NCBI GenBank assembly: GCA_964187785.1
Contig: OZ076409.1
Span: 7,194,001-7,258,000 of the forward strand
Direction of reading: 5' to 3'
DNA from: Amphiscolops sp. MND2022
Lineage: Eukaryota
Length of the DNA: 64,000 nt
Made by a program: the position numbers and the translations under genes. Numbering within the stretch: the stretch's first letter is position 1; each line of letters opens with the position of its first letter. Positions 15,425-40,897 of the stretch are shown piece after piece. The notes under the pieces are model-generated. The model was given only the letters and a program-made list of their open reading frames with translations, did no database searches and had not been told where the DNA came from.

Positions 15425-15429
15425 TTTTT

Positions 15430-16780: not shown

Positions 16781-17325
16781 TTTTTAGTCGGCGCTTTTCC
16801 TTTAAGGGAAAAATGCCCGACTATAGCAGTGACTGTTCTTTTAGTCGCCGCTTTTCTAGTGAAAAGTGCCCGACTCTTACAGTGGCTAGTTTTTTTCTTT
16901 TTTTCGTCAGACCACAGACCTCATCGCGTATGTACCACTTTTTAAAGAAACTGATAAAACTACTCAGGCCAAGTCCGACCAATGCAAACTTAGTGCAAAG
17001 GGTCTCCCTTTTCGTTTTAACCTTTTTTACGTAACCTACAAAACCAGAAGAGACTAAAGGCCCCCCTTCAATTTTTTTCGGCACTGTGCGACTTTTTCGA
17101 AAATTTTTCAATGTCTCAAAAGAGTCCCCCTTTCGAGTTTTTTGATATTTTGCAACAGAATATATGTCAATAAAGCCCAAAGGGTCCCCCCTTTTACATT
17201 TTTCGGCACTATGCGACATTTTCTGAAAGAAAGAAAATCAAAAATTTCAAGTTTTTTTTAAAAAAAAGTCTTTGCGCGTTTTGAGCCTTAGATATAGCGC
17301 CAACTTTAGACGTTCCCGTCTTGTT
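16781..17325 (+). mobile_element. HINE/Helentron-like repeat (duplicated 5' end at 16839)
   Basis: TTTTTAGTCGGCGC start; ATAGCGCCAACTTTAGACGTTCCCGTCTTGTT end. Confidence 0.68.
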
Positions 17326-17389
17326 TTTTCTTCAGACTACAATCCTCACACTGATCGGTTAACTTTTTAGAAACAATCCTGAAACCACC

Positions 17390-17878
17390 TAAGGCGCCCA
17401 GTCCGGCAAAGGGGCCAAGGCAAACTTAGTGCAAAGGTCCCCCTTTCATTTTTTTACTTTTTCAAGGTAACCTACAAAACCGGACGGATTAAAGAGTCCC
17501 CCTTTCGATTTATTTTCGGCACTGTGCGACTTTTTTTTCGAAAATGTTTTTGTCTCCAGAGGGTCCCCCCTTTCATTATTTACTTTTTTAACTTAACCTA
17601 CAAAACCGGCCGAGACTAAAGGGTCCCCCCTTTTGATTTTCTTCGGCACTGTGAGACTTTTTTTCGAAAATTTTTAATATCCCTAAAGGGTCCCCCCTTT
17701 GAGTTTTTTGTTATTTTGCAACAGAATGCATGTTTATAAATCAAAAAGGGTCCCCTCTTTCACATTTTTTGGCACTGTGCGACATTTTCCGAAAAAAATT
17801 TTTCGAAAATTTCAAGTTTTTCGCAAACAAAATGTTTTGCGCTTAGATATAGCGCCGACTTTAGACGTTCCCGTCTTG
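17390..17878 (+). mobile_element. HINE/Helentron-like repeat, 5' truncated
   Basis: GGGTCCCC subrepeats; ATAGCGCCGACTTTAGACGTTCCCGTCTTG end. Confidence 0.65.
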
Positions 17879-18386
17879 CTTGAACTTTGTTTACAGGAGG
17901 TTGCCATGTCCGAAATCTCGATTTTGAATCTAAAATTCATCGGTGCTTCTCCTATGATTATGCTGTGCTCATACTATGAAACATGATGGATCATATCATG
18001 AAACATGGTCTCCATGGTAAGATCTTGGCAAGATCATGATTATGGAATGACCATGATCATAATATGATCATACTATGATCATAGCATGGTGAGTATGTTT
18101 GGTCAACCAGGGAATAGATCAGGGCTGCACTGATTACTTTTTGTGGCACTTGCCATATTCAAATGCTCCTGTGTATAATACTGGACTGTCAAACAACAAA
18201 ATTTTGGAGGGCTTTTGATAGGAAACAGCGTGGCCACCGATGGGTCACCCTGGTTTTCCCAGGTTTCAGGATTTTTCTTTAAAAATTCAACGCTTTTTTT
18301 GGTTTAAAAGGCGTGGTTTCGAAAAAATTTTGGTTTAAAAAAGAGCTAAAATTTGCCCGTTTTGAAACTCGTGTGTTCTTTTATAG

Positions 18387-18486
18387 CAGCTCCAGTTCAG
18401 ATATTCGCGACAGGAGATTGAGAAGTAGAAGAAGCAAGTTTGGGAGACATCCATCTGTGGGAGATAGTCTTTTACAAAGAAAGTAC
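18387..18486 (+). CDS. Putative host gene exon B
   Basis: TTCTTTTATAG acceptor; SSSDIRDRRLRSRRSKFGRHPSVGDSLLQRKY; donor GTAAAC (alternative GTACGT at 18483); phase 2 to 0. Confidence 0.45.
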
Positions 18487-19105
18487 GTAAACTACAATTA
18501 TAATATCAAGTGTCAACAAACAATCGCCGAGAAAAAGTTTGTTCGATCAGTAGATGTGTCAGAATTTCATCGTCGCAAATCAAAGTTTAACCTGTTCACA
18601 GTTTCGCAGCTTAATGTTGTTGAAAACTGACTCTGAATTGACTACTCCTGAAAATTAATGTACTCAAAAAATTGTTTTCAGACTCACAGTAAGAATTCTG
18701 CAGTTTGATTCTGTCTATATCTATCTCTATTTTTGTTTAACTTTAAACAGCATAGCGGTACCTAAAATGAGCCTACATTTTTCAACTTCTGATTCGTTTT
18801 ACGCGAAGCCCATGTGTTCTTCAGCACAATTTTATTCAACAATTTATTGGTACCGTGTTTGGTCCAAACGGCACAAGTATCAGCAAAAGTGATGTTTTCT
18901 CCAACGCTGAGAAAAATGGGTTTGTCTTGCGAAATGGTTGAGCTTTTCAATTATTGGGTTTATTTTTTGTTTTTGGAGTTTTCTGTTGTGAGCGATAACG
19001 ATCGCTTTTCAATTTTTAAAATATTTTTTGCCTTCTCAAGATTATTGCTCAGTTCAGAACAATAAAAGTTGCACGTAGTTGACAGATGACAAGACAAGTG
19101 CTATA

Positions 19106-19376
19106 CAGTAGTGATATTTTGAGAAGCAACAGAAGGCACATCTCAAAATCGAATATTTCAAAAACGGCAATGATTTTTGAAAAATGGTAAAAGTAAAAGT
19201 TTCTTAGATTTTTATCTAATAGGTTTGTTCAAAAATTATGCGATGAAAATTGTAAATGTTGCTGTCAGCCAACGTAAATTGAGGCCTAGTTCTCATTTTT
19301 GGTCTAGTTTTGCTAGAATTTGGTAAAAAATTTTTGTTGAACTCCCTGCCCTGATTTTACTGAAGCCTTGATATGT
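19106..19376 (-). mobile_element. Partial copy of the MITE at 21402-22073
   Basis: TA-CAGTAGTGATATTT... matches the reverse complement of that MITE's right end for ~270 bp. Confidence 0.65.
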
Positions 19377-19432
19377 ATCCACGTGCTGTTGTATCCATAT
19401 GTTGCTTTCAATAATATAATTACTTTACTCTC

Positions 19433-19862
19433 TTTTTAGTCGGCGCTTTTTTAGAGAAAAGAGTCGACTACAGTCATGGCTTTTGTTTGGTCAGTGTTTT
19501 TTTTGATACACCTGAAGTAACCAAATTGTTCTACCAAAAGTTCTACAAAATGTACCTGTTGGCCCAAGGAACTGAACCAAAAAGGTTTCCCGCGTAACAT
19601 ACAATATCGGGAACTGTGCGATTTTTGTTTAATTTTTTTTCCAAGAAAGGGTCCCCCTTCACTTTTTTGGAGTTTTGCAACAGACTGGATGTTGAAAAAT
19701 CCCAAAGGGTCCCCCTTTCAGTTTTTTCGGCATTGCGAGTTTTTTTCAAAACTTTTTTTAATAAAAAGGTTCCAAATTCATCAGTGCTTTGACATTTTGA
19801 AGTCCTTTTGCTATTTTTGATCCTTAGATATGGCGCTGACTTAGGCCGGTCTCGGCTTGTTT
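19433..19862 (+). mobile_element. HINE/Helentron-like repeat (intact counterpart of the copy split by element 2)
   Basis: Both termini present; colinear with 24005-24251 + 38323-38573. Confidence 0.68.
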
Positions 19863-21401
19863 CTCATGTAAACAAATCGTGAACCTTGCGAGGCGCAGCT
19901 TTGTCTCTGTCTAAATGTTAGTGTTTTCAGCGAACATCTCGCTCAAGAAAAATGAGTCGGAACAAAAACCGTTGAAGCCCGAACCATTCGTATCGGATTT
20001 CGATTGTAACAAAAATCGCCACTGTTCCATCCAGTTTATGAATTTCGTCGAAATACGTTGGAAAACATTGTTTTTCTCTATAGCCTTGCAAAGTAACTTT
20101 TCCCGCATCTGTTGAAGACTATATCTTCAATTAGTCAGACTGAGTTGCAGTCGATTTTTTCATTCCGCAAGCAGCATTTTACGTCTCCAATGTTTTTCAC
20201 TTAAGACTTCGTCAATTGATTTCGTTGTTATTTTGTCTTTACTTTTTTTTCAAAATTTTCATATGTGAAACATTACAACTGTTACTCATTATCTTTTCAG
20301 TATTATGGGATGCAGTATTATCCTATCTTCAAAAATGCAAAATTACACAGTAAGCACAGAACTTGTATACCTTTAGTAATAATTGGTCCGATAAATGATC
20401 ATCCCAGTGGCCAAAATATTCGGTCGGTATTTATCCTGACTATTACAGCAAGTGACACAATCAATCTAATGCTTGAAGCTTTTTTCCAATGAGCATGAAT
20501 ACGCTCTAAACATTTTACAAACTGCTTGGATGTTTCACAGAATATTTCCATGCATGCTCCCTGAACTTTCCAAGTTTATAAAAAAATCAGCCTGCATGTT
20601 TCAGGCAGCATGTAAAAAGTTGAAGCAATGTCGACTAGTACTACAACAATTGAGCGCCATATTTCGATGAATTGCAATTGACTCCGTTGATGTACAATAG
20701 TTCAGGAAAAGAACTGAACCCTTATGTGTAAGAAAAAATTTGGACTGCAAGTAAACAAAGCTAGCATTTTACATGGGGATTTCTTTCGTTCTTGATTTTA
20801 CTCACGAAATTAAGTGACTGGAAAGACAAATCGAATGTTTAAGATAATGGGTACAATCGATTTAATTAGCAGATTCTTCTGATATCAATTTTATCAGTAA
20901 AAAATGTACCACCGAAAACACAATCCCCAATCTTTGCCAAAAATAGCTGTCTCACGTATTAAGATAGTAAATAAAATAAAATAATAGAAAACCTCTTTCA
21001 AAAACTACATGATACCAATTATCTTGATGTCAAATAGTTGAATGACTTCAGTAAATGAAGAAGTACCTGCCAAATAAACAGAAGTTCCAATTAGGTGCCA
21101 AATGTTACAAAATTGTCCAAAATGATGTCCCATATGCCAATTCACTAGTAAATCCAATCAATGAAAAATGAAATTAGGAAGTTTCTTCATTATTTGCAAA
21201 CCTACATTTCAAGTGGCCAAGAAAACTTTAGAATGTTTGTTTATCTGATTTTCAAATAACTTGGATGATAGCAGAAATCAGAGCTAGTTTTGTTTCGGTC
21301 CAATTCTTTTTTTTACAAATAAAGGTACAGTTTATTTCTTACACTATTGTATTTTGAAAAATTGTTTCATTTGGCAGCCGGTCAGAACGCGACATTTTGT
21401 A

Positions 21402-22073
21402 CAGTAGTGATTCTAGAAGAAGCAACATAGCACGCGAAAAGAAAGCAAATAAACAAAAATTTCATTGGTTGATCAAGGTCTCACGCGCTCATTTCATTGG
21501 TCGAGAGTGATTTCCAAAACATCATTTTTTAGTTTTTTTTAAAATTTTTGACCCACTTACAACTTTTTGATTTCAAAATAATTTTGACAGAAAAATTCTC
21601 GCAAACATTTCGAATCTGACAATATAATTGTTTCTCGAAAGTATTCTAAATTGCATTAGTATGAGCTTGTTTTAAGTAGATAAACTTCAAAATCATGTCT
21701 TAATACATGTATTTCCGAAAAGGTCTAATTTAACAGCGCATTTTTTCTACGATTTTAAGAGTATTTCTAAATCAAAACATATCAAGGGCTTCAGTTAGAT
21801 CAGGGGAGTCGATTGGACATAAAATTTCTCCAAAAATTTTAGGCAAAAGTTGACTAAAAGCGAATAAAACTTCAATTTTGACTTAAATTTGGCTACAAAT
21901 GGCCTATCGTATATTTTACAATTTTCACCGCATAATCTTGAAATAAACATATTTGTAAACTTGATAAAAATCTAAGAAACTTTCACTTTTATCATTTCTG
22001 AGAAATCGCTGCTGTTTTTGAGATATTCGATTTTGAGATTTGCCTTTTGTTGCTTTTAGAAATATCACTACTG
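21402..22073. mobile_element. Tc1/mariner-type MITE
   Basis: Imperfect TIRs CAGTAGTGAT...AAGCAACA, flanked by TA on both sides, non-coding. Confidence 0.72.
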
Positions 22074-22141
22074 TAGATTAGAAGAACGAATCAAAATGTT
22101 TTGGGGATATGATTGAAGTTTTGTTTCAATTTCATGTGCAG

Positions 22142-22335
22142 ACAGTGATTACTCTGGATGAAGTGTTCGACAGTGACTCTGAGCGTGGATTGGTCAATTC
22201 CCGGAAACCCGAAGAGGCGACTAGTGACGTAGACGCGACTCTCTCGCAACTGCAGAGACGAGAAGACCAGATGGCAAGCTACGCGCACTGCTCCACTGGA
22301 ACCAGCTTGATGTCTGGCTCTCAGGCCCTGCAAAG
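22142..22335 (+). CDS. Putative host gene exon C
   Basis: TTTCATGTGCAG acceptor, AAG|GTCAGC donor; only one open frame (TVITLDEVFDSDSERG...SQALQ); phase 0 to 2. Confidence 0.5.
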
Positions 22336-22460
22336 GTCAGCCAAAAATTAAAAAATTCAAGGGCATTTCCAACAGACCGGAATGATTCAGTAACCATTGA
22401 ATATTTAGTATTTGGTTGTTATCAATGAGAAAGGAAATGTATAGGGTACCAAAAACTTAT

Positions 22461-23007
22461 CAAGCCGTGAACGGCCAAAGTCAGCGCTATATCTGAGGCT
22501 CAAAAAGCGCAAAGCTTTTAAAATTGTAAAAGGGGGGACCCTTTTGACTTCTTGAAACTCCGGTTTAACGCAAAATATAAAAAAAAATCGGAGGGGACCC
22601 TGTGGAGACTTTAAAACAATCGAAAAAAATTAAAAAATGAGATTTTTCAACAGTGTTACAGTGCCGAAAAATGTAAAAGGGGAACCCTTTGGGATTTTTT
22701 AGCATCCTTTCTGTTGCAGATTATCGCAACAATTGAAGGGGGGATCCTTTGGTGCAATCCAAAAGTCTTCGAAAAAAGCCTCATAGTGCAGAAAAAATAA
22801 GTGGAAAACATCCAGATAGCCAAAAGGGGATCCTTAATATGTTTTCGTCTGTTTCATTGTTTTTGTTCTGGACAGGGTTATGAGGTTTCGAGTGTTTTGA
22901 ACCTCAGTAGTTCAAGTTGTTGAACAAATGAACAAAAAATTGGACCTTACGCGTCTAAAAACTACCCACTGTAAAAGTCGAGAACTTTTCTTCGAAAGCG
23001 CCGACTA
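22461..23007 (-). mobile_element. HINE/Helentron-like repeat
   Basis: Reverse-complement termini CAAGCCGTGAACGGCCAAAGTCAGCGCTAT ... AGCGCCGACTA. Confidence 0.65.
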
Positions 23008-24251
23008 GACAGTCGATTTAGCCGACGAAAATTGCAAAGCGCAAAATCTTTCAAAATATTTATTTTATAAAACAGCCTCACGAGTAAACGTCATTGAAAT
23101 TTTAATAAAAAATACAACGGTAGTTTTTAGGAGTCGGAAAAAATTTTCGACTACTAATGCAATCGTGTCGTTTTTTGTTTTTTTTTCTCCCGACCTTTTC
23201 ATGAAAATTTCAAATTTCTCAAAAACCGTCCATACGGTTTTCAAAAAATTTTGCAGTCATTCTACACCCAAAGGGGCCCCTGCATGCTCCAAGGCATCAA
23301 AATCGTACGACTGGAATGTCAGAAACATAGCCAAAATTAGCCCAAAAATGGCCAAAAGACAGCCGCTTCTCGACTTTTTTGATTTTCGCAAAAACTGCCG
23401 ATAAGATTCGAACGAAACTTTGTACAGACCTTCTACACTATATTATGTTCCTTTGTGTGTAATTTCATCAAATTCTTTTTGCTGGGATGTGAGAAACATA
23501 GTCAAAATTAACCCAAAAATGGCCGAAAAACAGCCATTCTTCGACTTTTTTTGATTTTTGGTAAAAATTGTCCATACGATTCGAACGAAAACTTATACAG
23601 TCATTTTCTACACCATAGTATGGTCTATGTGTGAAATTTCAAGAAATTTGTATAACTGGGATTGGAGCGAGTCAGAAGGAAAAAGACCTAAGCTTTACGA
23701 CTCTGGTTTATATTTTGAAATCGTATCAAAATTAAGGTTTCGAAGAATTTTGGATATGTTTGAATTTTACTGAGAAAATACTGCCTTCGATCAGTTTTGT
23801 AGCTCTGACACCGTTCTTCAACTTTAAAATTCAAGCAAGAATTATGAAGAAAATTCGTTCTTACAATTGAGCAGCCAAAACCACTGTTGTAATACGGTAC
23901 ACTACCGAGTCCGAATTTATTCGTACCATCAAACTAAAATTCCCATCAAACTGAAAAAGGACATTCATCAACAAACTGTAGTCGCTCCGCTTTTTGTTGA
24001 TACATTTTCAGTCGGCGCTTTTCTTTAGAATCTTCAGTCGACTATCGTCATGGCTTTTCGTCAGTGTTTTTCTAAGACCACCTGAAGTAACCAAAGTAAC
24101 CTGAAGTTCTACCGAAAGTTCTACAAAATTTTGAGAAGATGCCAAAATGTACTTGATGGCCCAAGGAACTGAACCAAAAAGGTTTCCCGCGTAACGTACA
24201 ATACCGCGCGAGACCAAAGGGTCCCCCTTCTAGTTTTTTTTCGGAACTGTG

Positions 24252-25160
24252 TGTCGGAACGGGTCTCATGTCCTATTGAGACCGTATTGAGGTCGTTCCC
24301 TTCTCTATTGCTAGAGGAAATTTTCTCCGTAAGTATCAGCACGAGATTTGTTAACTCTGTTATCTGCCTGTTCATCTCAGAGAACCTTTGATTCGCAGAC
24401 AATTGTTCTGGTTCATTTCTACTATGTAGTAAGTTTCCGTCGTCGAATTCTCTAATCTGATCTCTGGTCAGTACTTCAGGAATGCTACTTTCGCTTTCGG
24501 TATCGCTATACCTGTCTATTCCGTCCATATTCGTAGGTGTTTTTTTGATCGTCTTGGATCTAGTATTGACCATAAATGAAGATGTAAGAGTTTGAAGTTT
24601 TATTGGTTATTGTAGGCAATAAGTTGACAAATGTTGAAATTTGTAATATCAATATTCTGATGTAGTAAGCAACTGCACGTTTCTAACTATCCAATTTCTA
24701 CTGGTGGTACTATATTGTCTGGTGTCAATTATGGCGACGTTGGTCACGTGATCACATTCACCAATCATATTCTTGCGTTCATTCACACCTTGGTTGGTAA
24801 TTGCGCAATTTGAGTATTAGTTTAACACTGCACTGGAATATAATGTACTTTCGTTACTATGGTTACATGACTCACTAGTTGGTATGTTCGCACAGCACTG
24901 CAATGTGGTTATGCTATTTACATCTATGACTAGATGTTTGTATATAAATGGGGGTTACATGACTAACTGCATTGAATTGAAATCTGATGATGGCGTGTCA
25001 ACTACATCATATAATCTATCATGAAGTTGTTTTGGAAGGTACATGAAGCAAATTTTTGATTATGGTTGCAGAATAGCGAAACTATTTGAAAAACTAAATA
25101 TGAATGGTTTATGTGAAAGTTTTGAATTTCAGATTTGATGATGCTGTTTGGTTAACTACA
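24252..25160 (-). repeat. 3' LTR of element 2 (909 bp); encodes 107 N-terminal Gag codons from ATG 24573
   Basis: Minus strand TGTAGTTAACC...CCGACA, preceded by a PPT; repeated at 37120-37303 (direct) and 37413-38322 (inverted). Confidence 0.85.
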
Positions 25161-25184
25161 TTCTTTTCCTTCATCTATTCTCCC
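25161..25184 (-). promoter_or_regulatory. Polypurine tract of element 2
   Basis: GGGAGAATAGATGAAGGAAAAGAA directly before TGTAG; second copy at 37389-37412 on the plus strand. Confidence 0.75.
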
Positions 25185-26240
25185 GTATCGCTGTTGGTTT
25201 GTTTCCTTTCTTGGATGTTGTGTAGTTAACCACATCTTTATTCGGTATTCTCATGCATCAGGCATGGCACTTCGGGTCTTTTTTGAAAAAAAACATCTAG
25301 TGGGGATGGCAAATAGTTTCTTCGCATTGTAGGAGGAATTAGACGCTGTTTTTCCAATGGGCAAAGCTGAACTCGGTTGTATTCTTTGATTGGAGATAAC
25401 GGCGATGTTGTCATAGTAACCACATTAGTAGTGGTTATTCGGTATTCGTGGCTGAAATGGTCGGTTCGTTAATATGCAGGCCGATTTGGCAAGCGAGAGG
25501 AAGAAATTGAATTCGCGCATTGACTTTACCACTTCGGTCGAGAGTAAAGAGTAGTTTGATGTGGCGAGGATAGCCACGTCATCCAGTTGTGCGCATTGTT
25601 ATTAGCAGTAGTGGTAGAAGGAAGTTGAAATCGCCGGAAATTACCTAACGTGGCAGCGTAATATAATTTCTCGGGTTATTCGGTAATTGTTCGGAAGTGA
25701 AAGCAGTGGAACGTCGTGCGCTTTGTAAACAAATCTTCGTGGACGCCAAATACGAGTGATCGAAGTAAATTTTTGCATTAATTGAATTGTTGCTAGTTGG
25801 AACTGCTGTTAGATATTGAGCGGTATACCAGGTTAAAGAGAGCTAAACGATATGGTTTGTTTTGAGATATTGGTCCACACATTCATGAGGGAGTCGTCGT
25901 TCTTTTTTCTGTAGTGAATTATTACAGTCGTCGTGAGGTTTGAGATCATCCAAAAAGGGGGTGACCAACAGTTCCGGTCATGTTGCGTGTTCTTTTTCGG
26001 GTAAAAAATTTAGCGATCTTTGAAGTTCGAACGTTGTCGTTCTTTGAGCATTTGGTGGTCAGATGGTCTTTTTTTCGACTAGTCGTTGACAATAGTCTAC
26101 CATTCGTGGAGGATGAGGGTGATCAGTCCTCATTCCATATCACAATAGACGCTGAAACCTGGTAGATCGCAAATTTTTTCCCTAGATAGTGTTTAATTTG
26201 CGACACTGCTTATTATTGATAGTTATCTCTTGTTACGTGA

Positions 26241-29200
26241 ATGGCCGCAGAGGAGTTATCAGAAGAAGAAGTCGCTTGTGAGGGCTGCGGAAGGAGCATT
26301 TACTGAATTACCCAGTTTGGATTGCTCGTCAGATGAGGAAGGACTCGAAGCTTTGGTTGGAGAGTTACTTGAAGGTGAAGCCCGTCCTTCATGTTGTCAG
26401 TTTGCTCATCGGGTGAACGCGGCCAATGTGGATGCTGCTACGATATAGCTGGAAATTGCCTTGTCCAGTGAATTCCGTAAGTACCCAAACTTTTTGCGTT
26501 TGTCTTCTTGTCTTTGTGGCAGTCACAAAATGAGGGTAGCTGCAAATCGGGTGTAAATAGTCGTTGAGCTCATCATGGTAATGTGCATTTGTGCACAGCG
26601 TCGTTAATGCAGGGTGTGATTAACTAGCGGCACTCTTTTAAGCTCTTCCCGGGAACTATTACCTTGGGTAGACTGTCAAAACGTTGTTGCTGATTCTGTT
26701 GATTTCAGTAATAACGTTTCCCTATGTGTGTTGCAGAAGCTTTGAATATGACCGATATCGTGTCCATGTTACGACGCATGCTTCAGTCTAAAGAGTCATC
26801 AGCTGACGTATCTTCCATGGGTGCATGCGAGGTCGGGCTCAGGGATCATTTCTACCCACAGTGTGGTAAGTTTGCGACTTGGTATTTTCTGTATGTAGTG
26901 CTGTAAGGTAGTGCTTCGTCTCGTTCTGCAAGGCTTGGGGTTGTGATAGGGGGTCATCGTTGCAACGTATGGTTGATAACGTAGTTGCTTACACTGGGTA
27001 ATGTGTTTCAGGTGTTGCAGGTAGTTCCGCATTGAGCGTTGACGATATCGTAGCTTCCATTAACCGTCTGGAGAAGGAGTTAACAGGTGTGGTAAAGGCT
27101 ACGGTCGAACCCAGCATGGGCCAGTTAGGGACTGTAGGTGCGATGGCTGTTGTTGAACTTGTCAGGCAATTGAACGTAGCGGTGTCGCAGTTAGCACCTG
27201 TCAGTGGATTGCCCACGGTCGCGCCCGGGGACATGTGTCGGTGATGCCGTTATTACCAGTCGGTTCTTTGTCAATTGGATCGGGTGTTCCAGTAATTCCG
27301 TCAGTTGCCAGTCGTCAAGATTCAGTAGCGCCATCATTGTTCGGTGAGAGTGCTGTCATCGGACCAAGCAGTGTGGCGAAGTCGACTGCTAGCAAGCCTG
27401 GTAAGAATCTCAAAAGATCATGGGAGGGGTTTTACTTTTTCAGGCACTAGGATTTACCATTGACGTTTGAAACAGTTTTTTTAAGAGTCTATTCAGCATA
27501 TTCAGGTTTGCATGTTTATTTTAGTGCGTGCTAAGAGGGTCAAGACGCCGAAGCCGTCTTACTTCGTTTCCAGCGTTGTGGGGACCTTCGTTGGCTTCCT
27601 CCGCAACAAAGGAGTAATTGATGGGTACGCTCGTTGTCTGCTATGTCGGGCGGACTTAGTTATTGCTGGGTGCGGTATCTCGTCTCTGTGGAGTCATGGG
27701 AAGGGTGTGGAGCACACCCGTTTAGAACAGAAATACCGAATCATGACTCACCGACCGCTATTAGACAAGGCTTGCAGACCGGTATCTGCTGAAGAGGATC
27801 GACGAATCAGACGTGCCAGATTGACAGAGCCTCCAGATTTCCTGGAAACTGATATAAATCTGACTGTGGAGGAGCGCATGGCGATTGAAGAGGCGGACGC
27901 AGAGGAAGGAACACGACCGCATTTATCAGACGGGAGTGTGAGCTACTTGTGGTTGAGCAACTTTATTTCGAGCATTCTAGTTTACAAATCCTTCGAAGGA
28001 GTACTTCAGTCGTTAGATGTTTGGCGTAATTGTATGGCAAACGAACTACAATTTGAGTGTCGAACGATGGAATACGCGCGGTGTCAGGTAGATATGCGCT
28101 TTTGTGTTTCTTATATGTCGCGGATTATTGTTTTTTGTTGTTGTTGGTAGTAGAATCGTGTATATTGGGGTGATTGCGGTTTCTTTTGTTGGTTTAATGT
28201 CAATGTCTTGATGACGTTGCTTGTTGCTATTTAGAGGCTGGTGCTGTATGGGTGCTATCCGTATGTTGTGGAACAACTAGATGCATTGGTAGATTCGAGC
28301 TCATGCATTGGTGTGAGTATTCGACAGAGTGACTGGCAGTGGCGTGGTGAGCTTCACATCATCGGAGATCACGGTGTGAAGTCGATTGTGCTCGCTCTAG
28401 TTCCCGGGGGTACTGGATGGGAGAGGAGAATGCTGAACAATGTGGTTCCTTTACTTGCTTGTCTGAAGGACAGATCCCTTTTGAAAACTGTGGCAGTCGA
28501 AGGAGATACACACTTTGGTCGGGCAGTAGCTGGAATGGTTTCTCCTAAGACGCCGATTGTGGTTGGGCTTTTGACGGCAAAATCAGTGTTTAACGAGGTA
28601 CAAAAGCAGTTCCAGATGGAATTTTCGGGACTTGATCCGCTCAGTGTGTTAAAATACTTTCGTGTGAGGATGATGCCCGTGGTTCATGAGAGTTTCTTGT
28701 ATCAATTACCCTTGTTACGACAGGTGAATATGTTATTGCGTATTTTGACCATTTAGGTATTGATATTTTTTTTCGGATTTAGGTGAGGTATAAGACTTGT
28801 GTAGATGTACAATCGTTCTGGTAGTGATGATGAACTAATTTTTGTTTGTTGTTCTAGTGTATACGAGTCTGTGGAGAGGACGTCTCTCAGTTGGCGCTAG
28901 TCTGTGCGGAAGTTGTGGAGTATTGGAACGATTTGTCTTTGTACTTTGGGACTCACAGGCCTAATGTTACTTTGGAATTGCGGCCAATCACTCCACTGGA
29001 ATGCCAGGTGTTCGAGGATGCCATTGTCCGGCCCCGATTTGCTATCTTGCGGCTTGTTCTGGACTTAAGTAAGTATGAATTATTTGATTGTTTTTCAATG
29101 GGGTAGTGTTTTCTCTCTTTTTTTTGTTTTCCCTCTTTTGTCTTTTTTTGCTGATTTTTAGTAGATGTCTGGGATTAGTTTCGGAGCTGGGGGTATGGTT

Positions 29201-30340
29201 AGTCCTCTCAGCCGGGCACGTTATTTTTTAATTTGTGTTGCAGTGGTGAAGCATTGTCCTCGACTGTGAAGACGTGGTTGTGACTACGGCTTGTTGTTGA
29301 ACGAGAGCTAGCACAATTCCTTCGCAGATTGATGAGATTCATCAAGGTTCTGATGATCGTCGTGTGGATTCGTTGGTGGAAACTTGTGCTGTTTTAACTG
29401 CCTATGGACTCGTTGAATTAGATGATGGCGGCGTAGTGCAGCAGCAGTACAGGGAGATCACTCATTTCTTCAGAAAACGATGATCGTTTTCAACAGATGA
29501 GATGCCAGCTGTAGAAGACATATTCGCCTTATGGATGTCGAACCCTCATTGGGGGCGATGTGAGCAATTGCGACAAATTGTAAACCTAGGGTTCAAAGTG
29601 GTGGTTGTCAGCGCGTACCGTACTGATTTTGCTGATAGTGTCAGTGGCGCTCTGGATCCTGATGAACTCTCGTCAAGTCTGCATTTAGTTCGTACCTGGT
29701 TTGGACATTCGTTTATTGGAAAATCACGCCGTGATCTACGTGGCCTATTACGAATTGCCGCGACAGCAGATATGCAAGTTTCTCGCTTGTCCGATAGCGT
29801 TCGTGCCAAGCCGTGGGATCAGCTACTTGAAGTTGGATTGGATCACACTCTATCTTTCTGCGTGACGTTGCTGGACAAAGGACCTGAGACACCTGTAGTT
29901 CCTGTGGTCGATGAGTATAGATCGACAATTCTCGCTCAGTTGAATGTTATGGAAGTAATGGCAACTAGTCCTATCCGTGCTTCCCCTAATCTTACAGCAA
30001 TGCAGTCTGGCTCTGGTTCAAAGTCTAAAAGGCCTCGTAGTCAAACCGATGTGAGACTAAAAACTCCAGAGAAAAACGCTAATGTGGCTGTAGCTACTAC
30101 ATCTAAGTCTACCGTACGGTCAAGGACCCGTGTAACTAGTCGTGGAGGTAGTGGAAAGAGAACGTGTTCTGCGAGGGACGTCGATCAGGTGGGAAACCCC
30201 AAAGTAGCAAGACGTTAGTGCTATCTGTGGCTGCTAGTGGTTCAGTAGATCAGGGGATCAGACATCCGATGGATTTTGGCGGGGCCTAATCGCAAGGGAA
30301 GACGGGCAACGAGAGTCGAGTCGTCTGACGAGCCTTGAAG
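26241..30340 (+). pseudogene. Antisense multi-exon BED-finger/hAT-transposase-derived gene inside element 2 (decayed)
   Basis: CLLC...LWSHGKGVEH zinc finger; GT-AG introns 28088-28234, 28724-28857, 29069-29243 plus upstream ones; homologous to 48926-52863; stops and frameshifts present. Outer limits approximate. Confidence 0.8.
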
Positions 30341-31910
30341 GAACAAAAATGTGCGCCATTTTGTATTAAACTTCTTACTGATGTATTTGCATTAGTTTTT
30401 TCTGGTTTTGTGCTTTGGCGGTTTTGTATTTTGTAAATATGAACTTTTACTGTTTTTTTCTCTTGCCTTACCCTTATACTGGGTATTTGATATTTCATAT
30501 GTGGATTTTACATGTGTTGTTTCATGTACAGTTTGTGTTGTTGGTTATTTACTTGATTTGCTTTGGGTTTGAAGCGTGGGTGAACTTTAATTTACTTGTT
30601 GCCTATGTTATACAAATTTTTTGACCTATTTTGCATGTAATCTTCGTTAGCTGGTCTCAAAATGTTAGAGCGGTAGGCTCAGCTTTGTAAATCGTTCATG
30701 TTCTAGTAGAGTAGTCGCTTTCGTGACTACCATTGAAAAGCTCTCACTCACAATGCTCCATCGGTAAGTCAGCGTTGTTCAATTTAATAGCTTACATATG
30801 ACACAAATGGAAACTTGGTGGGTGGGTGGAGCCGCTCTGCTCCTATAGATGATTTGAACGTGTTGAGTGGTTGCTTTTATACTACTCTAGTCGGTTTTTT
30901 GACGGCTGTTCATAAACTTAGGTGTCATTTTGAGATGTCAATTACTTCGGATTTTACATATGTTTGTCTTACATGAAGCGTTCGTTCTGACGTCGTCATC
31001 GCTGATGTGTGTCTTGCGACGTCATCATTCGTGACGTGTGTCAAGTGTTAACGCAAATTCAATGGCAAATGGGTTTCCCCATGCCCATTAAATTTTTTGG
31101 CAAGGGGTTGGCACGCACCATCCCTTTTTTCGGATTTTCGGTCATGTTGTGAGAGTAACTGCATGTGCTTAATTATCTTGTTCTTTCTGCCGCGAGGCGA
31201 AGCCTACAAACCACCAGTAAGAACAAAGGCGTCACGACTTAGGTCGAAATGGGGGTGACGACTGCATGTTACTGTCCTAGGAATAGACTTATTTGTTTTC
31301 GTTTAGTTGGGAAGGTTATTTGCCGTCGCAAAAACCCATTCAAAACTAACACCGAATCCACTTGCTAAAGAGCAAGCTTCATCTGAATGTTTGCACAACC
31401 ACACAGACGCGCTTTTGATGACGCACCCACACAGCCGAACCACATCATGGTTTTTCGGGGCGGAAGTGTGAGTCTAGATTTTTGTGACGTAACTTAAGCG
31501 AGTCAGCTGTTTCTTTTACGTTCTCGATTGTGAACTGTGACGTTTGTAAAGGTAACTTAACGTAGTTGATTCAGAGTTGGTGGGTACAAAAATGCAAAGC
31601 AATTCCTTTGAAAGCGTGTGGTTGAGATTCTTCGTGAATTGCATAATTTAGTAGCTCGTTTGCATGTCTTTTACATGTACTTAACAATTTCCGGTTAGAG
31701 TGATGTGTTGCATATGACTGCATTACATGTATTTACTTTCGCGCTCAGCTGTCTGTATAGAGAGTAACAATTTACTCTGCCGGTAAACTCGAGTATGCAG
31801 GACAGTGAGTATCAGTCGTCACTGAATGGTGTAACGTAAATAGAATACTTCAATGGTATGATTGGTACATGTGGTGATATAGACTACATTGTATTGATTG
31901 CATGTTTTTT

Positions 31911-34900
31911 CTATTGGCTTGCAGATTTGCGTTGCATGAATTTCAAAAGTGCGGGCTTTGCTTGCAGTACTTGAACAAGGACGTTATCAAACGTTTTAGA
32001 CACAGGTGCTTCGCGAAGGCTATATCTGGTAATATTGTTTCGTGTGATCGGTTGAGACGTTTCGGCAGGTGATGTGGTCGATGCCGCATCATTATTTGAC
32101 AGAATTTGCTGTTCCGACTCGTGATCAGGTGTCGGTGTGTCTATTTCGTCTGGTTGGGTTTCAGGTTCAGTTCGGTGCGTACGGTCGTTGTGGATGGTTT
32201 CAGGGAGCGGGTTTTACAGAGGTGGGACCTCATGAACCCGTTTGTGCTCATAATAAATTGTTCCATGCTCAGAATCGATTATTTCAGTTTCGTTTGTGTC
32301 GAGTTCAAATGAGTTTTCAGCCGGCGGTGTTGGTTCGGGTGCAGGTAGATTGTCGTTGAATATTGACTCATCGTCAATTGCGTCGTTGGGTCACTGTAGT
32401 GTCGCGCTGCATCGTCGTGTATGTCTTCAACCGGGTCATGTGGTACGAATGGGCGGAACCGGCATTCTATGTACACACTGCGTTTTGAAGGTACCGACTT
32501 TTCTGACGATATAATTCGATTGTGTCAGGACCTTAACCACTTTGCAAGGTCCTTCACATTTGAAGGAGTTAAAAGGGGTTTTTTTCCGATTGCGTGCTAA
32601 TTTTAGGATTCAGTAAAAAGACAAAGTTGTTTACTTTTAATGGTGATGCTTGGGCTTTTCGATCATAGTACGCTTTGTACTTATGGAAGGCTCGGATTAT
32701 GTTGGTATGAGTTTTTTTTAATTTGGCATTCAGATTGTCCACTAACGACTGTGTATCAGTGGCATTTCTCGGTGAACTGAGAGGGTTGCCAAATTTTAGG
32801 TCTAGTGCGTTGTATGGCACGCGGCCATGGAAAACTTCCGTTGGTGAACATTTCAGAGTTTGGTGGTAAGTCGTATTGTGCGCCATGACAGCGAGATTGA
32901 CGTATCGGTCCCACTGTGGGCGTTCTGCGGAGACGTTTATTTTCAGAATCTGTTTCAAACGTTGATGCGACCTTTCGATCATCCCAAAAGTTTGGGCATG
33001 TTTGATTGTCGCGTGGGAGACTTACATCCCGGCTTTGTCCATCAGTTCTGTTATGACTTGCGATGTGAAAGCAGAGCCTTTGTCAGTGATGATGTGCTTC
33101 GGTACATATGCATGTTTCGTGAAAAAGTTTAGCAGGGCGTCAACGACGGATTTAGTATCAGGTTTACGGATCGGATTAGCAAACAGGTGCCGTGAGAAGT
33201 AGTCACAGGCCGTCAGAATGTGTGAGTACCGATTAGATTGCGGTAACTCACCGACGAGGTCATTTTCCAGGACATCTTCAGGACCGTTGCAGCGGTCATA
33301 GATTGGTTCAAGTGGTGGTGTTCCCGAGCTGGGTTTTATAGGTTTCGCTTTAATACAGTCTAGGCAGTTGTTAACAAACTTTCGAACTTTTTCGGCTAAG
33401 TTCGGGATGTAGTACTTTTTCTTGAGTTCACCAAACATTTTTGAAGCTCCAGTGTGTCCCTGCATGGGGTCGCCATGCATCGTCCTGATTATGGCTTCCG
33501 TAGTTTCTGGAGGAACTACAATTTTTCGGTAAGCTAAGTTTTCTACGTTGTCGAAAAACTGTCTGTACAAAACGTTGTTGACGACTTCAAGTCTTTTACG
33601 GTTTTTGAAAAGTTTTTGGAAAAAGGTACTTGCAAAAGTAACTTGGTTTGGAGGGGTTTCTTGCGCAGTAAGGATCCTAATTACCCGTTGAACGTCACTT
33701 TTTTCGCCTTGAGCCTTAACAATTTCTGAATTCCCCGAAGGGCATACCTGATTTACCGTGTGAACCTGGTTCCGTTGGTAGAATCGGGTGAAGAACAGTG
33801 TTGGATCAGAGGGCGTCACAAACGGTTGCACCTGTCGGTTTTGATGTCGTCAATGCGTCTACAGTACTGTTCGTCGTCTTCGTGACGCCATTGAGGGAAC
33901 ATCGCCAGGAGTGACTGCATTGTCGGGTTCGGTGATGTTGTTGCGTCAGGCACATTCGTCTCGTCTGGATTGTATTCTTCCTCCTAATCATCTTGCTTAG
34001 GCGTTTTTGATGCCAGATCAATCTCGACTTTGAAGACTGGTATCTCATCATGTAGTTTGAGGTGGATTCTGTTTTTCGGGTGGATGTCGATTCTGGACAG
34101 GTAGTCAGCTGCTGGATTTTCGACTCCAGGTACATGGGCCAGAACGAAGTCGAAATGGAGGGCTTGATCACAGTAGTTCCATAATTTTGGTGGTATTCCT
34201 TTGGACTGGAAGAATCTTGTGAGAGCTTTGTTGTCAGTCATGACAATTGTTGGTTTCTTCACTCCCCACAGGATATGGGCGAACTCGTCAAATGCGAAGT
34301 GCATGGCCAGGATTTCTTTCGCGTACATCGTGAGTGACATTTTGCCCTCGGTGAACCTTTGAGATCCAAAGGCTACTGGTGCATATGACTTCGTTGGTCC
34401 ATTGTTGGTTTCAGTATAGTCTTCGATCAGAAAAACGTAGCCGGTTGCGTGCTCGCTAGCATCGCACATAATCACTAGTTGTTTGTCCGGAAGTGGTAAT
34501 CGCAGGGACATCTTGGCAGCATTTGCGAGGTTCTCGTTGATATCGAATATGGCGTCTTTGTGGATCTGGGTGAGTTCGTACTTGACATCTTTCAGTAACA
34601 ACTTGTATAGTGGGACCAGTTTCTCAGCTAGCCTCGGGATGTACTGACAGTAGAACTGTACAAATCCAATAAACCGTTGTAGTGACTTCACAGACGTCGG
34701 CAGTTTGATGTTCTCCAGAAACTTTTTCTTCGATGAGCGCGATGCCTTTGGTAGTGATGCTTCTGCCAAGAAATTCGAATTCGGGGTGACCAAAAGCACA
34801 CTTCGCCATTGACAGCTTCAGACCGGCCTGTCTGATTTTGTTGAATACTGCTTCAATGTTGTTGACTAGCTCTTCGACAGTGTTGGCGGCAATGCCGATA

Positions 34901-36025
34901 TCGTCAACGTATTGTGCGCATTTGTCTGCCTTGACGAAGGGGTCCAAGTACTCACGGACAGTACTGTTGAAGGCTGACAGGGACCGGTTCAAGCCCTGGG
35001 CTAATCTGAGGAAGGCGAAGGTTCTACTTCCAAAGTTGAACGCAAGCAACTGGACTGACTGTTCATCCGCCATCTGAAGGCAATGGTACGCCTATGAACA
35101 ATCCAACTTGCAAAAGTAACGTTTGCCGGCCATGTGTTGCGCTGCATCGGCCATCGTTGTCACAGGGTGGTTGTGTTGATTGTAATCGTTCTTCAGTAAG
35201 TGATTAATTCTTCTGAGATCGACCAGGATCCTGAGTTTTCCGTTTGGCTTGCGTTGGGCGAAGATAGGCGAAGTGTATTTACTATACGGTATTGTGGTGA
35301 TGATACCGTACTCTTGCATCAATGCCAATTCCACCAATAAATCGTCTTCAAATTTGTTGGTGTGGGCAAGCTTTGGACATAAACTGGTTCGTGGTGTTTT
35401 GGAGTCAACTTCATCTTGAGTTCGGTGTTGATCCCGATATCCAGTCTGTGTCTCGCGAAGATGTCGTGGTAATTGACCAATAGTGCCTCGATCTCTTGCT
35501 TCTCATGAGGGTTCAGTATTGATTGTTCCCACTTGAAGTTCGCCAAGAATTCTTGTCGTTGTTCCTCACTTGATGTTGGGTCCAGTTTTTCTTCAGCTCT
35601 GAGTTTGACGATCTCGTCGTAGATGCGTCTCTCAATCTTGTTGAGCTTTGACGGGTCGTCGCATGTCTCAGGGGTGGGTACCATCGTCTGTCTGTTTTCT
35701 CATTTGGGTCCTGGAAGTTGTGGTTCAGAACTGCCGTGGCCTCGTCTGGGTATTGCGTGATCAGGTTGAGTTGGTGGCTCGTCATCGGTTGCAGATTGTT
35801 TGCCTGTTTTGGAGTCATAATTTTGAATGACGCCACTGCTGTCCCCACATTGATCGTGATCTGGTAATCTAGTTGGTTGGCGATCTGCACATGGGATCGT
35901 CCCTCTCGGGTCTCGCTGAGAGCCGGAGATACCAGTAAATGTGAACGCCTCTCGAAGGCGGGTAGTCCTTCCACGGTACCAGTGATGTTTCCCAGATCTC
36001 GTTCAATTACCACTGGGACGAACAC
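31911..36025 (-). pseudogene. pol of element 2 (dUTPase-like, RT, RNase H, integrase; protease deleted; many frameshifts)
   Basis: ORF fragments 35513-36025, 35319-35684, 35092-35337, 34624-35073, 33984-34799, 33022-33831, 32569-32982 align to the 45255-48692 protein; ends RYSLREAP...stop at 31911. Confidence 0.92.
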
Positions 36026-37303
36026 TTGTTCTTTCTGAAGTCCTTTCTGAACTGTCTATTTTCTTCCGTTGGCTGTTTGGTATACGGAACACTTCTGTAA
36101 GCTGAGGTGGTCGTGTTCCTGTGATAACAGTCTCGAGCAGAGTGTCCCACCGTTCCGCAAATTTGACACACGAGTTTTGAGTTATACTTGGGTCTGTTGT
36201 CTGGGTTCTGGGTAGCTTGGGTTGGTTGCTGTGGTTTTTGACTGGCGGGTTTAGCTTGTGCTTCTTCTCGCAGTCGTTTCTTGCATTCCACCCACTTGTG
36301 TCCATGTATGCCGCAGTGACGGCACTGCCCGTCGAACTTTCTTTTCGTCTCTCTGTTTTGTTGGGGTTGGACGATTGATGTCGGAGGTGTGGCTGCATTT
36401 GGTTGTGGTGCACGTATTTGGTTGAACGGTTGGGCATTTGTAGTGTTCTGGAGGAGTTGTGCATACTGACTTCTTCGTTGCACGAACGTCCTGATTTCTT
36501 CCATGGTGGCGTCATGTTTTCCCGCCATTGCCAGTTCATTCTGCATATGGACTGGAAGTTTCGCGAACAGGAATGTTTCTGTTAGGTCGTTTGACCTATC
36601 GCCAAAAGCTTGTTTTGCTACTTTCTTAAACTTGTTGAGAAAGTCGTTAAATGTTTCAGTTGCGGGGTCGTACCGCATTTGGTCAATTGTGTATTTGGCC
36701 ACCTCTTCCAGGTCCTCTTTGGCATACTCCTTCTTGAAATAACGTAATACTTGGGCGAGTGTTGTTTGAGTTATTATTTTCAGTGATTGCCAGAATTCGA
36801 TGGCGTCATCACGGAACAGGCTTTGAAAATACGTCAGTTTTGTTCTTCTGACAGTTTGTGTTGATGTGATCGGAGATGATTTAGCAAGAGGTGCTCGAAC
36901 TTGTTGTATTTTTCCCTGTTTCCCCGGAAGAGCGAGACTTGGGTTTGTAGGATTTTCGGATGTTGCAGGTTATCCGACACTGTCATGGCATTGTATACCT
37001 CAAGTGATGGCTTTCGGTCACGATGTCCTCCATTTGGTTGGTGGATGACTGAGGGTATTTTGAAGTGGATTGTCGTTGTGGGTTCGTCTGCGTGTTACTG
37101 GTGGTTGCTCCTGTCACCATGTCGGAACGGGTCTCATGTCCTATTGAGACCGTATTGAGGTCGTTCCCTTCTCTATTGCTAGAGGAAATTTTCTCCGTAA
37201 GTATCAGCACGAGATTTGGTAACTCTGTTATCTGCCTGATCATCTCAGAGAACCTTTGATTCACAGACAATTGTTCCGGTTCATTTCTACTATGTAGTAA
37301 GTT
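36007..37303 (-). pseudogene. gag of element 2 (frameshifted; N-terminus lost in the LTR rearrangement)
   Basis: Capsid-like LFAKLP; knuckles CRHCGIHGHKWVEC and CQICGTVGHSARDC; joined directly to the dUTPase-like region near 36028. Confidence 0.88.
37107..37119 (-). promoter_or_regulatory. PBS of element 2 (TGGTGACAGGAGC)
   Basis: Directly follows the LTR end CA; identical to the element 3 PBS; resembles the complement of a tRNA-Leu 3' end (inference). Confidence 0.85.
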
Positions 37304-38322
37304 GCCATGCCTGATGCATGAGAATACCGAATAAAGATGTGGTTAACTACACAACATCCAAGAAACGAAACAAACCAACAGACGATACGGGAGAATAGTT
37401 GAAGGAAAAGAATGTAGTTTACCACACAGCATCATCAAACCTGAAATTCAAAACTTTCACATAAACCATTCATATTTAGTTTTTCAAATAGTTTCGTCCA
37501 TCTGCAACCATAATCATAAACTTGCTACATGTACCTTCCAAAACAACTTTATGATACACTATATGATGTAGTTGGCACGCCATCATCAGATTTCCATTCA
37601 ATGCAGTTAGTCATGTAACCATCATTTATATATAATGTTCTAGTCATACGATGTAGGTAGCATAACCACATTGCCGTGCTGTGCGAACATACCAATTAGT
37701 GAGTCATGTAACCATAGTAACGAAAGTACATTATATTCCAGTGCAGTGTTAAACTAAAACTCAAATTGCGCAATTACCAACCAAGGTGTGAATGAACGCA
37801 AGAGTATGATTGGTTGATGTGGTCACGTGACCATCGTCGCCATAATTGACACCAGACAATATAGTACCACCAGTAGAAATTGGATAGTTAGAAACGTGCA
37901 GTTGCTTACTACATCAGTATATTGATATTACAATTTTCAACATTTGTCAACTTATTACCTACAATAACCAATAAAACTTCAAACTCTTACACCTTCATTT
38001 ATGGTCAATACTAGATCCAAGACGATCAAAAAAACACCTACGAATATGGACGGAATAGACAGGTATAGCGGTACCGAAAGCGAAAGTAGCATTCCTGAAG
38101 TACTGACCAGAGATCAGATTAGAGAATTCGACGACGGAAACTTACTACATAGTAGAAATGAACCAGAACAATTGTCTGTGAATCAAAGGTTCTCTGAGAT
38201 GAACAGGCAGATAACAGAGTTAAGAAATCTCGTGCTGATACTTACGGAGAAAATTTCCTCTAGCAATAGAGAAGGGAACGACCTCAATACGGTCTCAGTA
38301 GGACATGAGACCCGTTCCGACA
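37304..38322 (+). repeat. Inverted copy of the element 2 3' end (pre-PPT sequence, PPT, full LTR 37413-38322)
   Basis: Reverse complement of 24252-25268, joined to a 184-bp U5 remnant (37120-37303). Confidence 0.9.
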
Positions 38323-39528
38323 CTGTGCGACTTTCGTTCAATTTTTTTTCCACCAAAGGGTCCCTCCTTCAATTTTTTTGGAGTTTTTCAACAGTCTGGA
38401 TGTTGAAAAATCCCAAAGGGTCCCCCTTCCAGTTTCTTCGGCATTATGAGACTTTTTTCAAAACGTTTCTTCATAAAAGGGTCCCCAGTTCACCAATACT
38501 TTGACATTTTGATGTCCTTCTGCTATTTTTGATCCTTAGATATGGCGCCGACTTGGGTCGTTCCCGGCTTGTTATACACATATGTGTATTATCTTTAGTT
38601 CTGTTACGGAACCATTATTGCTACCATTTTGAAAGAGTATAGTTTGGCATACAAAAGAGATCAGTACTTAAAACTTGTTTTCATCTAACCAAGTAGAAAT
38701 TGAACACTTGTAATTTCGTCGAAGCAATATTTTACGGAGTAAAAATTGAACAATATGCATAAGCTGATCATTTTGCGGTGTAAATTCTTCAGAGGGCGTT
38801 TTCAGAAAATGTTTTAATTTCAAAAGTCAGAGATCAGAATCGAAGTGGCAAAGTTTGTGCCGAACACTTTTTGCGAAGAACAGCGCTTCTCGAGATAATG
38901 CATGATATCAAAATCCCAGAAGTCTAAAAATAACGAAGCGTTTTGTTAGTTTCTTTTGTTGTTTTTGTGTGAGTTCAAAACAGAAATAGCCCTGTTGCTC
39001 CAATTACTTTTGTGTCTAAGATTCTGTACAATTTTATTGCGATTTCAATCAAGTTGAGATTTGAAATTGAGTATCTTTAGCTTTTTTTGTATCCTGGTGA
39101 AGAAAAACGTGAAGAGAGTGTAATAAACTCGTGTGAAATTTTTGCAAGATTATGCAAGATTATGCAAGAAGCAGATTACGCTGTTTGATTCGTGCTTACT
39201 ACAAAAGGAAAATTTGAAAGAAGAGAACCATTATTTGTGTTTTTTTTTAGATTGAGATGACCCTATTTTGGTTTCTTTCAAAAGAAGTCAAATTTGATAC
39301 ATTAAACATCAAGCATGATAGAGCTTATTAGTACTGTTTCTTAAGCTAATAAAACTATACCGCATTTTTGAAAATCAAATTTCGTTAATGGCAAAACAAT
39401 GTCATCTTGCAGTGTTCCCAGTTTGGTTTTTGATTGGTGGAGACTCTTGAAGCACCCAATAGTCTTTAAAAGAGATTTTGAAGTTTCTGAAAATTTACTG
39501 CCTTGAATGTGAGGTTGTGTTTTCTCAG

Positions 39529-39643
39529 AACGCTTGAGGACAAAGAAGCCCAAAAGTTGCAGCCAATGAGAAGCGTGAGTCAATTGGTGAAGGTTCAGCC
39601 CACATCCCCGTGTTTCTCCGAAAACTTGTGCAGCGAAATATCG
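39529..39643 (+). CDS. Putative host gene exon D
   Basis: TGTGTTTTCTCAG acceptor, TCG|GTAAAT donor; TLEDKEAQKLQPMRSVSQLVKVQPTSPCFSENLCSEIS; phase 2 to 0. Confidence 0.5.
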
Positions 39644-39676
39644 GTAAATTCACAAGTATTATACTTTGTAGGTTGG

Positions 39677-40377: not shown

Positions 40378-40563
40378 TGTTACTTTTGTCTTGGCTTTTT
40401 CCTCAATGTAGCGTGAGTTTTGGGCCAATGCTTTTAGCTGGTACTGAAATTGTCAGACTATTAAAGTCATTTTTTCAAAACACACCAATGCGATGTAAGC
40501 GGCTAGGGCGGCAGAAATGGCAATTAGCATGTGGTTAGCGCTTTGGCTTCCCCTTCTGGTGTT

Positions 40564-40740: not shown

Positions 40741-40897
40741 AATAATGCTAAAACTTTTATGATGAAGCAAGGCTCAAACAGCTCAGAGTGTTTTATATAA
40801 GCACAAAGGTATTTCGGTGTAATCTGAAAAATCTCACGGTGTTGAAAATTTTCAAAGGAGGAACTCTTTGATCTCTTACAAAAGTGCCTTTGGTATG

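Follow-up and report, generated by a model that had tools for sequence, protein, structure and literature searches.

A spliced antisense gene, probably a hAT-like transposase derivative, carried by Gypsy retrotransposons of Amphiscolops sp.

Open reading frames that run antisense between pol and the 3' long terminal repeat (LTR) have been described in the plant and fungal Gypsy elements Grande, RIRE2, Retand, PvRetro13 and Boty (PMC7264820; accessible text of PMC11963269). Their origin and role are described as unknown, with no similarity to other transposable elements (PMC7264820), and the antisense frame of Grande has its own promoter (PMC7264820; accessible text of PMC11963269). Here, we describe an antisense gene in the same slot of a large group of Gypsy elements from Amphiscolops sp. 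MND2022, and consider it likely that this gene is a dead hAT-like transposase that was captured and then kept as a functional accessory gene. The stretch analysed, called the window below, is 64,000 nucleotides (nt) of a 1.07-Gb assembly in which spliceosomal introns are present (GCA_964187785.1, contig OZ076409.1, positions 7,194,001 to 7,258,000 of the forward strand). It contains three LTR elements, of which element 2 (24252-38322) and element 3 (40898-56469) belong to the Gypsy type and share about 50% identity in pol.

The resemblance to the Grande/Retand group lies in an antisense coding region in the same slot, conserved over copies, with a nuclear or putatively DNA-binding product. The frames of that group encode TRP28 (PF04195) or SMC-like domains, which are described as restricted to flowering plants, whereas Pfam scans of the present gene matched neither. 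The present gene also differs in having three to six introns, a traceable hAT-like fold and an animal-like host genome, while the word 'intron' does not occur in the Retand paper. The LTR retrotransposons of bdelloid rotifers are likewise animal elements with captured extra frames, but these are of Env, exonuclease, esterase, coiled-coil and membrane types, and the searched part of the text mentions neither 'intron' nor 'transposase' (PMC5408684). In Arabidopsis Copia elements, multi-exon antisense transcripts are non-coding (accessible text of 10.1101/2024.04.02.587720). An env-like third frame is ruled out for the Amphiscolops gene, which is antisense and modelled as an RNase H-like helical protein and not as a sense membrane glycoprotein. 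No LTR element with a spliced antisense gene of hAT origin turned up in our literature search, Repbase, Dfam, subscription journals and supplements being outside its range and possibly holding such an annotation.

In both elements, the gene is antisense to pol and sits between it and the 3' LTR, as the initial annotation had stated for element 2. In element 3 (minus strand), four exons join into a single open frame of 1209 amino acids, with GT-AG introns of 83, 68 and 157 nt in phases 0, 0 and 1. The first coding exon (52863-51088) alone encodes the N-terminal 592 amino acids, with an acidic low-complexity N-terminus, a basic cluster and a C2H2 finger. It is followed by exon 2, which has the RNase H fold (50519-51004; 486 nt, a length kept in all six clade members examined), by the 217-nt exon 3 (50234-50450) and by the last exon (48926-50076). 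For element 2 (plus strand), the three introns in phases 0, 0 and 1 that had been proposed were recovered as introns A (28088-28234), B (28724-28857) and C (29069-29243), but three further coding introns upstream (26477-26736, 26866-27011 and 27401-27524) had been overlooked; these recur at matching places in both relatives for which upstream DNA was fetched.

The exons of element 2 begin with coding exon 1 (26241-26476), which is 45-49% identical to the corresponding region of loci L071 and L072, uses the same GT donor, and has a frameshift and a stop in the window copy. Coding exon 2 (26737-26865), read by hand from the sequences, is 129 nt long, as in L072, and coding exon 3 (27012-27400), broken in the window copy, encodes a helical stretch and a low-complexity linker. 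Then come the zinc-finger exon (27525-28087), the counterpart of the RNase H-like exon of element 3 (28235-28723; 489 nt, 163 amino acids), the exon of the helical-insertion region (28858-29068; 211 nt against 217 nt in element 3) and the last exon (29244-30218), which is broken and, compared with that of family members, lacks about 270 nt. The window copy of the gene is thus decayed, with both frameshifts and stops. The same layout was found in all three remoter loci of the element 2 clade (42-52% identity) and in all five further loci of the element 3 clade (31-82% identity in the last exon). Among the 30 best element 2-like loci, the GT donors of introns B and C are present in every one, the AG acceptor of intron B stands at the computed place in 27, and the length of intron B ranges over 99-179 nt.

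Are the two antisense genes homologous? Their proteins are 14-18% identical, in line with the low identity stated initially; BLASTP of exon pairs was not significant (best E 0.018 and 20), and comparison of a hidden Markov model of one clade with sequences of the other gave a non-significant 2-7 bits. Profiles built separately for each clade were then compared with each other. The last exon aligned at a probability of 94-96.5% and E 1.1e-7 (score 58.9, where the highest of 59 column shuffles reached 20.9) and, with deeper alignments, at E 7.6e-10, residue 1 to residue 1. The zinc-finger exon gave E 4.2e-5 (36.9 against 22.4 over 25 shuffles), exon 3 gave E 4.7e-5 (27.8 against 18.8, also 25 shuffles), and the spliced core, run without a shuffle control, gave E 4.3e-8 over 389 columns; exon 2 by itself fell short of significance (E 0.03-0.08), its score of 16.7 lying below that of the best shuffle (17.8). 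The three motif pairs on which the relationship had first been proposed are real and stand in register in these alignments, and the spacing of the finger, C-x2-C-x16-H-x5-H, is kept in all nine copies examined from both clades.

The introns align as well, although their placement at strictly equivalent points held exactly for intron B alone (by HHalign and by MAFFT), with C and A agreeing to within one codon or column by some alignments. Intron C is one codon off in the HHalign and MAFFT alignments of the spliced core and exact when the last exon is aligned by itself; intron A is one column off by MAFFT, lies outside the local HHalign alignment and is misregistered in the global one. A rough estimate gives a probability near 1e-7 that, over about 2300 positions, three introns would by chance agree in phase and in place to within one codon. 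At the level of sequence, these comparisons show that the antisense genes of elements 2 and 3 are homologous and that their introns are shared. Neither of the two outcomes that would have overturned the initial proposal, a profile-profile alignment short of significance and a failure of the introns to align, came about. Two independent captures of related transposases would account for the low identity, for the failure of exon 2 to reach significance alone and for the different intron content of the N-terminal halves; such a history is, however, very improbable given that slot, strand, finger spacing, exon sizes and three intron positions and phases all agree and that the deep split agrees with the pol tree.

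Linkage to pol was assessed by genome searches in which the best candidates were scored (108 of 7633 for the element 3 last exon and 150 of 701 for the element 2 last exon), and counts of the accessory gene are lower bounds for that reason. A listed pol hit lies within 10 kb of 59 of the 150 listed element 2-like hits and is tail-to-tail in 59 of 59, where 0.4 would be expected by chance; the spacing is mostly 4.1-4.8 kb. Since 140 of 26,156 pol candidates were scored, the other 91 accessory hits are undecided as to linkage. In all six relatives with downstream DNA fetched, pol was present downstream. Internal stops are absent from 101 of the 108 scored element 3-like last exons. In the spliced frame, the ratio of nonsynonymous to synonymous substitution rates (dN/dS) is 0.039 between element 3 and L064 and 0.074 between element 2 and L033, both diverged pairs, and 0.25-0.26 for two pairs of close relatives; a further seven pairs have saturated synonymous sites and dN of 0.16-0.65. 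Judged from these substitutions, the antisense gene is under purifying selection (dN/dS 0.04-0.26) and is to be regarded as a working part of the element.

This evidence refutes, as a general account, the chance nesting of a DNA transposon or gene that is passively carried, and we leave it almost no probability. The decay of the window copy of element 2 would fit such nesting, as would the 91 accessory hits with no listed pol hit nearby, if the small share of pol candidates scored is set aside. Against it stand the purifying selection in the spliced frame with synonymous sites saturated, exon lengths and GT-AG ends that stay constant while intron lengths vary, and the occupation of one and the same slot in clades that share 44-51% identity in pol.

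The introns themselves have changed over time. A fourth intron, in phase 0, lies within exon 3 of L065-L068, splitting the counterpart of the 217-nt exon in four of the five other clade members examined, and is precisely absent from element 3 and L064. Its presence and absence among families is intron turnover inside a retrotransposon gene. The precise absence is as expected if a spliced antisense mRNA had been reverse-transcribed and recombined back, and is thus indirect evidence that a spliced antisense mRNA exists.

What might the protein be? From N- to C-terminus it comprises the acidic low-complexity region, the basic cluster, the C2H2 finger, the RNase H-type exon 2 and an all-helical region. 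Exon 2, modelled from an alignment mixing both clades (predicted local distance difference test score (pLDDT) 70, predicted template modelling score 0.56), forms an RNase H-type sheet followed by helices, with the topology alpha-beta1-beta2-beta3-alpha-beta4-alpha-beta5. When compared with 48,161 solved chains, this model matched residues 153-266 of the Hermes transposase (8edg_A; Z 6.7, root-mean-square deviation 3.2, 104 residues aligned) at rank 2, tied with the rank 1 match, pelota. The last-exon model is all-helical (pLDDT 85.5) and matched Hermes 367-608 (Z 4.9, root-mean-square deviation 6.6, 177 residues aligned over model positions 1-295) at rank 9; this is the longest among the 50 matches listed, 48 of the other 49 aligning at most 70 residues. 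The two ranges are collinear on one chain, and the 100-residue gap between them fits the roughly 120 residues between the models. The hAT arrangement of an RNase H-like fold followed by a large helical insertion is thereby recovered, at middling Z-scores. A lead obtained before the structure comparison points the same way, 23 of 30 Atlas hits falling in a Dimer_Tnp_hAT set (score 0.91). The gene probably encodes a hAT-like transposase derivative, its models having hit Hermes twice in the right order.

Like hAT transposases such as Hermes (PDB 8edg) and domesticated hAT genes, the predicted protein has an N-terminal zinc finger, an RNase H-like core, a helical insertion and a C-terminal region, in the same order. 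It differs in having no conserved catalytic Asp-Asp-Glu (DDE) triad and no Pfam hAT match, in residing inside a class I element and in its long acidic N-terminal extension. It also lacks a conserved CxxH, a motif that we take to be characteristic of hAT transposases. Catalysis by Hermes needs D180, D248 and E572 (accessible text of PMC2533014). In the element 3 clade, Asp was found in none of the 26-30 rows at positions 24-30 in beta1 and in 0 of 37 rows in beta4, and positions 224-250 of the last exon hold no conserved Glu (26 of 51 at best); in the element 2 clade, beta1 has no conserved acidic residue. As the DDE triad of hAT transposases is not conserved, we class the protein as hAT-derived and not as a hAT transposase, and the best reading of these alignments is that it is a catalytically dead one.

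Several observations weigh against this assignment. Both Hermes Z-scores are below 8, a level that the structure tool calls common, and Foldseek returned no match at E <= 0.001 for either model; for exon 2, its top-ranked hits were retroviral RNase H and integrases, with Hermes absent from the rows shown. The Atlas lead is weak by the rules of the Atlas (135 shared features, family agreement 1/10), and for exon 2 the Atlas gave nothing above 0.77. Pfam scans gave no hAT or BED match and no family for the core exons, and a sequence search of the PDB with alignments A2 and A3 gave no match. In regard to catalysis, Glu occurs in beta1 in 25 of 26 rows of the element 3 clade and after beta4 in all 47 rows of the element 2 clade, so that each clade keeps one or two glutamates near the site and may retain a residual activity; the catalytic positions were placed by strand layout and hAT motifs, not by residue-level superposition. 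In tests of individual hAT features, the finger found in the nine copies had no zf-BED match and only sub-threshold C2H2 families, and the hAT dimerisation domain (PF05699), to which the Atlas lead alone refers, had Pfam matches in 0 of 52 last-exon sequences. A hAT transposon would be bounded by terminal inverted repeats and an 8-bp target duplication; no repeats flanking the antisense gene were found at the lengths sought (60 nt or more).

In the scenario that we favour, a hAT-like transposase gene with introns would have inserted, antisense, into the 3' internal region of an ancestral Gypsy element, and would then have lost its catalytic triad and been retained as an accessory gene. This explanation builds on the homology of the genes, their shared introns, the fixed linkage, the purifying selection and the RNase H fold. 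On genomic RNA, the antisense introns would not be seen by the spliceosome and would therefore survive every round of reverse transcription. A promoter within or beside the 3' LTR would drive a spliced and translated antisense mRNA; element 2 and L071 resemble each other over about 500 nt there.

The source may instead have been a host gene already domesticated from a hAT element, introns included, in place of a mobile hAT, with the same function following. Domesticated genes typically have several introns and no DDE, a description that the antisense gene fits, and the Atlas gives FAM200-GTF2IRD2-like clusters scores of 0.91 and 0.89; suitable types would presumably be ZBED, FAM200/GTF2IRD2 and ZNF862, names taken partly from the Atlas. 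A conserved host paralogue would be expected to show in protein searches, which returned no named or full-length relative, and we judge a domesticated source quite improbable. Among 1.84 billion representatives, 427 related proteins were found at E <= 0.001, and the 10 looked up are ENA entries. Two relatives (P0041 and P0003) belong to this same genome; a third (P0018) has no match at E <= 1e-90 in this assembly, which may mean that a second host also harbours members of the group. Full-length relatives of 670-2000 amino acids numbered 0 among 6269 candidates, and of 456 pattern matches to alignment A5 in JGI metagenome contigs none was confirmed.

How has the gene descended since its capture? 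Trees of pol and of the accessory protein were built for 8 elements, all from this genome, and recomputing the pol tree without an out-of-frame stretch of L059 and without element 1 left the grouping unchanged. The initial annotation had proposed an ancient capture in place of chance nesting, inherited vertically. A single ancient capture is supported by the uniform tail-to-tail arrangement, purifying selection, introns shared at so low an identity and a congruent deep split. Vertical inheritance stands at depth, with four of the five inner branches agreeing between the reverse transcriptase-bearing pol and the accessory protein, but is apparently not strict. On the fifth branch, pol pairs element 2 with L062 (92/89), whereas the accessory protein pairs it with L059 (99/97). 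In an approximately unbiased test of groups named after the trees were seen, the accessory data reject the pol grouping (p 0.009); the converse rejection, of the accessory grouping by the pol data, falls short of significance (p 0.08). L065 and L067 have a pol dS of 0.28, with accessory dS saturated. The accessory protein evolves several times faster than pol, identities being 99% for pol against 73% for the accessory in L065/L067, and 92% against 53% in element 2/L062. The conflicting branch and the dS mismatch are signs that closely related families have swapped the 3' module, on top of vertical descent.

In light of this origin, what might its role be? The product would be nuclear, oligomeric by way of the transposase scaffold, and able to bind DNA through its zinc finger. 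We predict a family-specific factor acting in trans on its own LTR region, promoting expression or shielding it from silencing, and give this about an even chance. The rapid evolution of the protein and its apparent exchange independently of pol speak for a partner that evolves rapidly too, either the LTR or the silencing system of the host. A service to integration in place of transcription control (nuclear import, binding of cDNA ends or tethering to target sites) would suit a transposase scaffold, which naturally binds DNA ends, and for plant antisense frames a part in bringing the pre-integration complex into the nucleus has been suggested (PMC7264820). A protein that evolves far faster than pol and is apparently exchanged independently is nonetheless a poor fit to a fixed partner of integrase, and we regard this role as unlikely. 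Returning to LTR control, two regulators offer parallels: HBZ of human T-cell leukaemia virus type 1 (HTLV-1) is a nuclear, antisense retroviral regulator (accessible text of PMC11963269), and VANC of Mutator is a transposon-encoded anti-silencing protein, VANC and the ATLANTYS accessory proteins having been co-opted from host proteins (accessible text of PMC13547354). The likeness to HBZ and VANC is a functional analogy only.

The structure of the carrier elements agrees with their assignment. Element 3 has every terminal feature of Ty3/Gypsy: direct TG...CA LTRs, a primer-binding site, a polypurine tract just before the 3' LTR, and a target duplication (5 bp). Its 5' LTR (40898-42469, plus strand) differs from the 3' LTR (54896-56469, plus) by 11 substitutions in 1572 nt and two gap columns. 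Its gag-pol (42469-48692, plus), which occupies several frames in the window copy, encodes a zinc knuckle, protease, dUTPase, reverse transcriptase, RNase H and integrase, and the Ty3/Gypsy order of protease, reverse transcriptase, RNase H and integrase is confirmed; the dUTPase-like domain follows the protease (43785-45179, plus, E 8.4e-6). A frame at 41914-42469 (plus) in the LTR continues through the LTR end and the primer-binding site into gag, and in both elements 2 and 3 an ATG overlaps the junction of LTR and primer site. Between the antisense gene and the 3' LTR, and entering the latter, is a sense open frame of 347 codons (53941-54984, plus), acidic with a Cys cluster and with no Pfam match. 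An exact 442-nt tandem duplication (56321-57204) includes the end of the 3' LTR and is either a recent duplication or an assembly artefact, and a palindromic 180-nt stretch (85%; 40562-40742) immediately upstream of element 3 is possibly a small inverted-repeat element.

On the minus strand, element 2 has its gag-pol at 32414-37119, in the order reverse transcriptase, RNase H, integrase and interrupted by stops and frameshifts, and its 3' LTR at 24252-25269 (1018 bp, TG...CA); read along the pol strand, a purine-rich tract comes before this LTR. The primer-binding site is identical to that of element 3. The 5' end is rearranged (37120-38322, minus): the last 185 nt of the LTR stand beside the primer-binding site, with an inverted LTR copy before them. 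Both ends of the inserted 14-kb unit are consequently the same LTR end, and a 5-bp target duplication (24247-24251 and 38323-38327) still flanks it, within a host repeat. The full 1203-nt rearranged form occurs in this copy alone among 40 scored candidates, and looks like an aberrant reverse-transcription product that integrase nonetheless inserted. A family with inverted terminal repeats is ruled out, as the LTR unit is found in ordinary direct pairs around relatives. Element 1 (about 1-9000, minus) is a remote Gypsy lineage (pol 22-27% identity) whose 3' region is beyond the window edge, and it has a long post-integrase extension with a Cys-rich motif that runs past the window start. A short dispersed host repeat is clustered in both orientations at 13000-24250, 38323-40400 and 57700-58450, and elements 2 and 3 sit inside such clusters.

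In its boldest form, our proposal is that the dead hAT protein, produced from a spliced mRNA, is a sequence-specific, family-tuned activator or anti-silencer of its own LTR, rapidly evolving and swapped between families amid conflict with host silencing and driving an expansion to thousands of copies; we hold this to be a tentative possibility, one that may well not be correct. If true, the protein would be an animal counterpart of VANC and HBZ, made from the enzyme of another transposon. A class I element would have domesticated a class II transposase, a domestication by a mobile element instead of by the host, and one antisense extra gene would gain a traceable origin in a DNA-transposon enzyme. 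Since reverse transcription cannot strip antisense introns, those that are shared, gained and lost provide a built-in clock, and the dozens of natural families can be used for testing what the accessory protein binds. In genomes of this kind, annotated gene sets will include thousands of spliced 'zinc-finger genes' that belong to retrotransposons as cargo.

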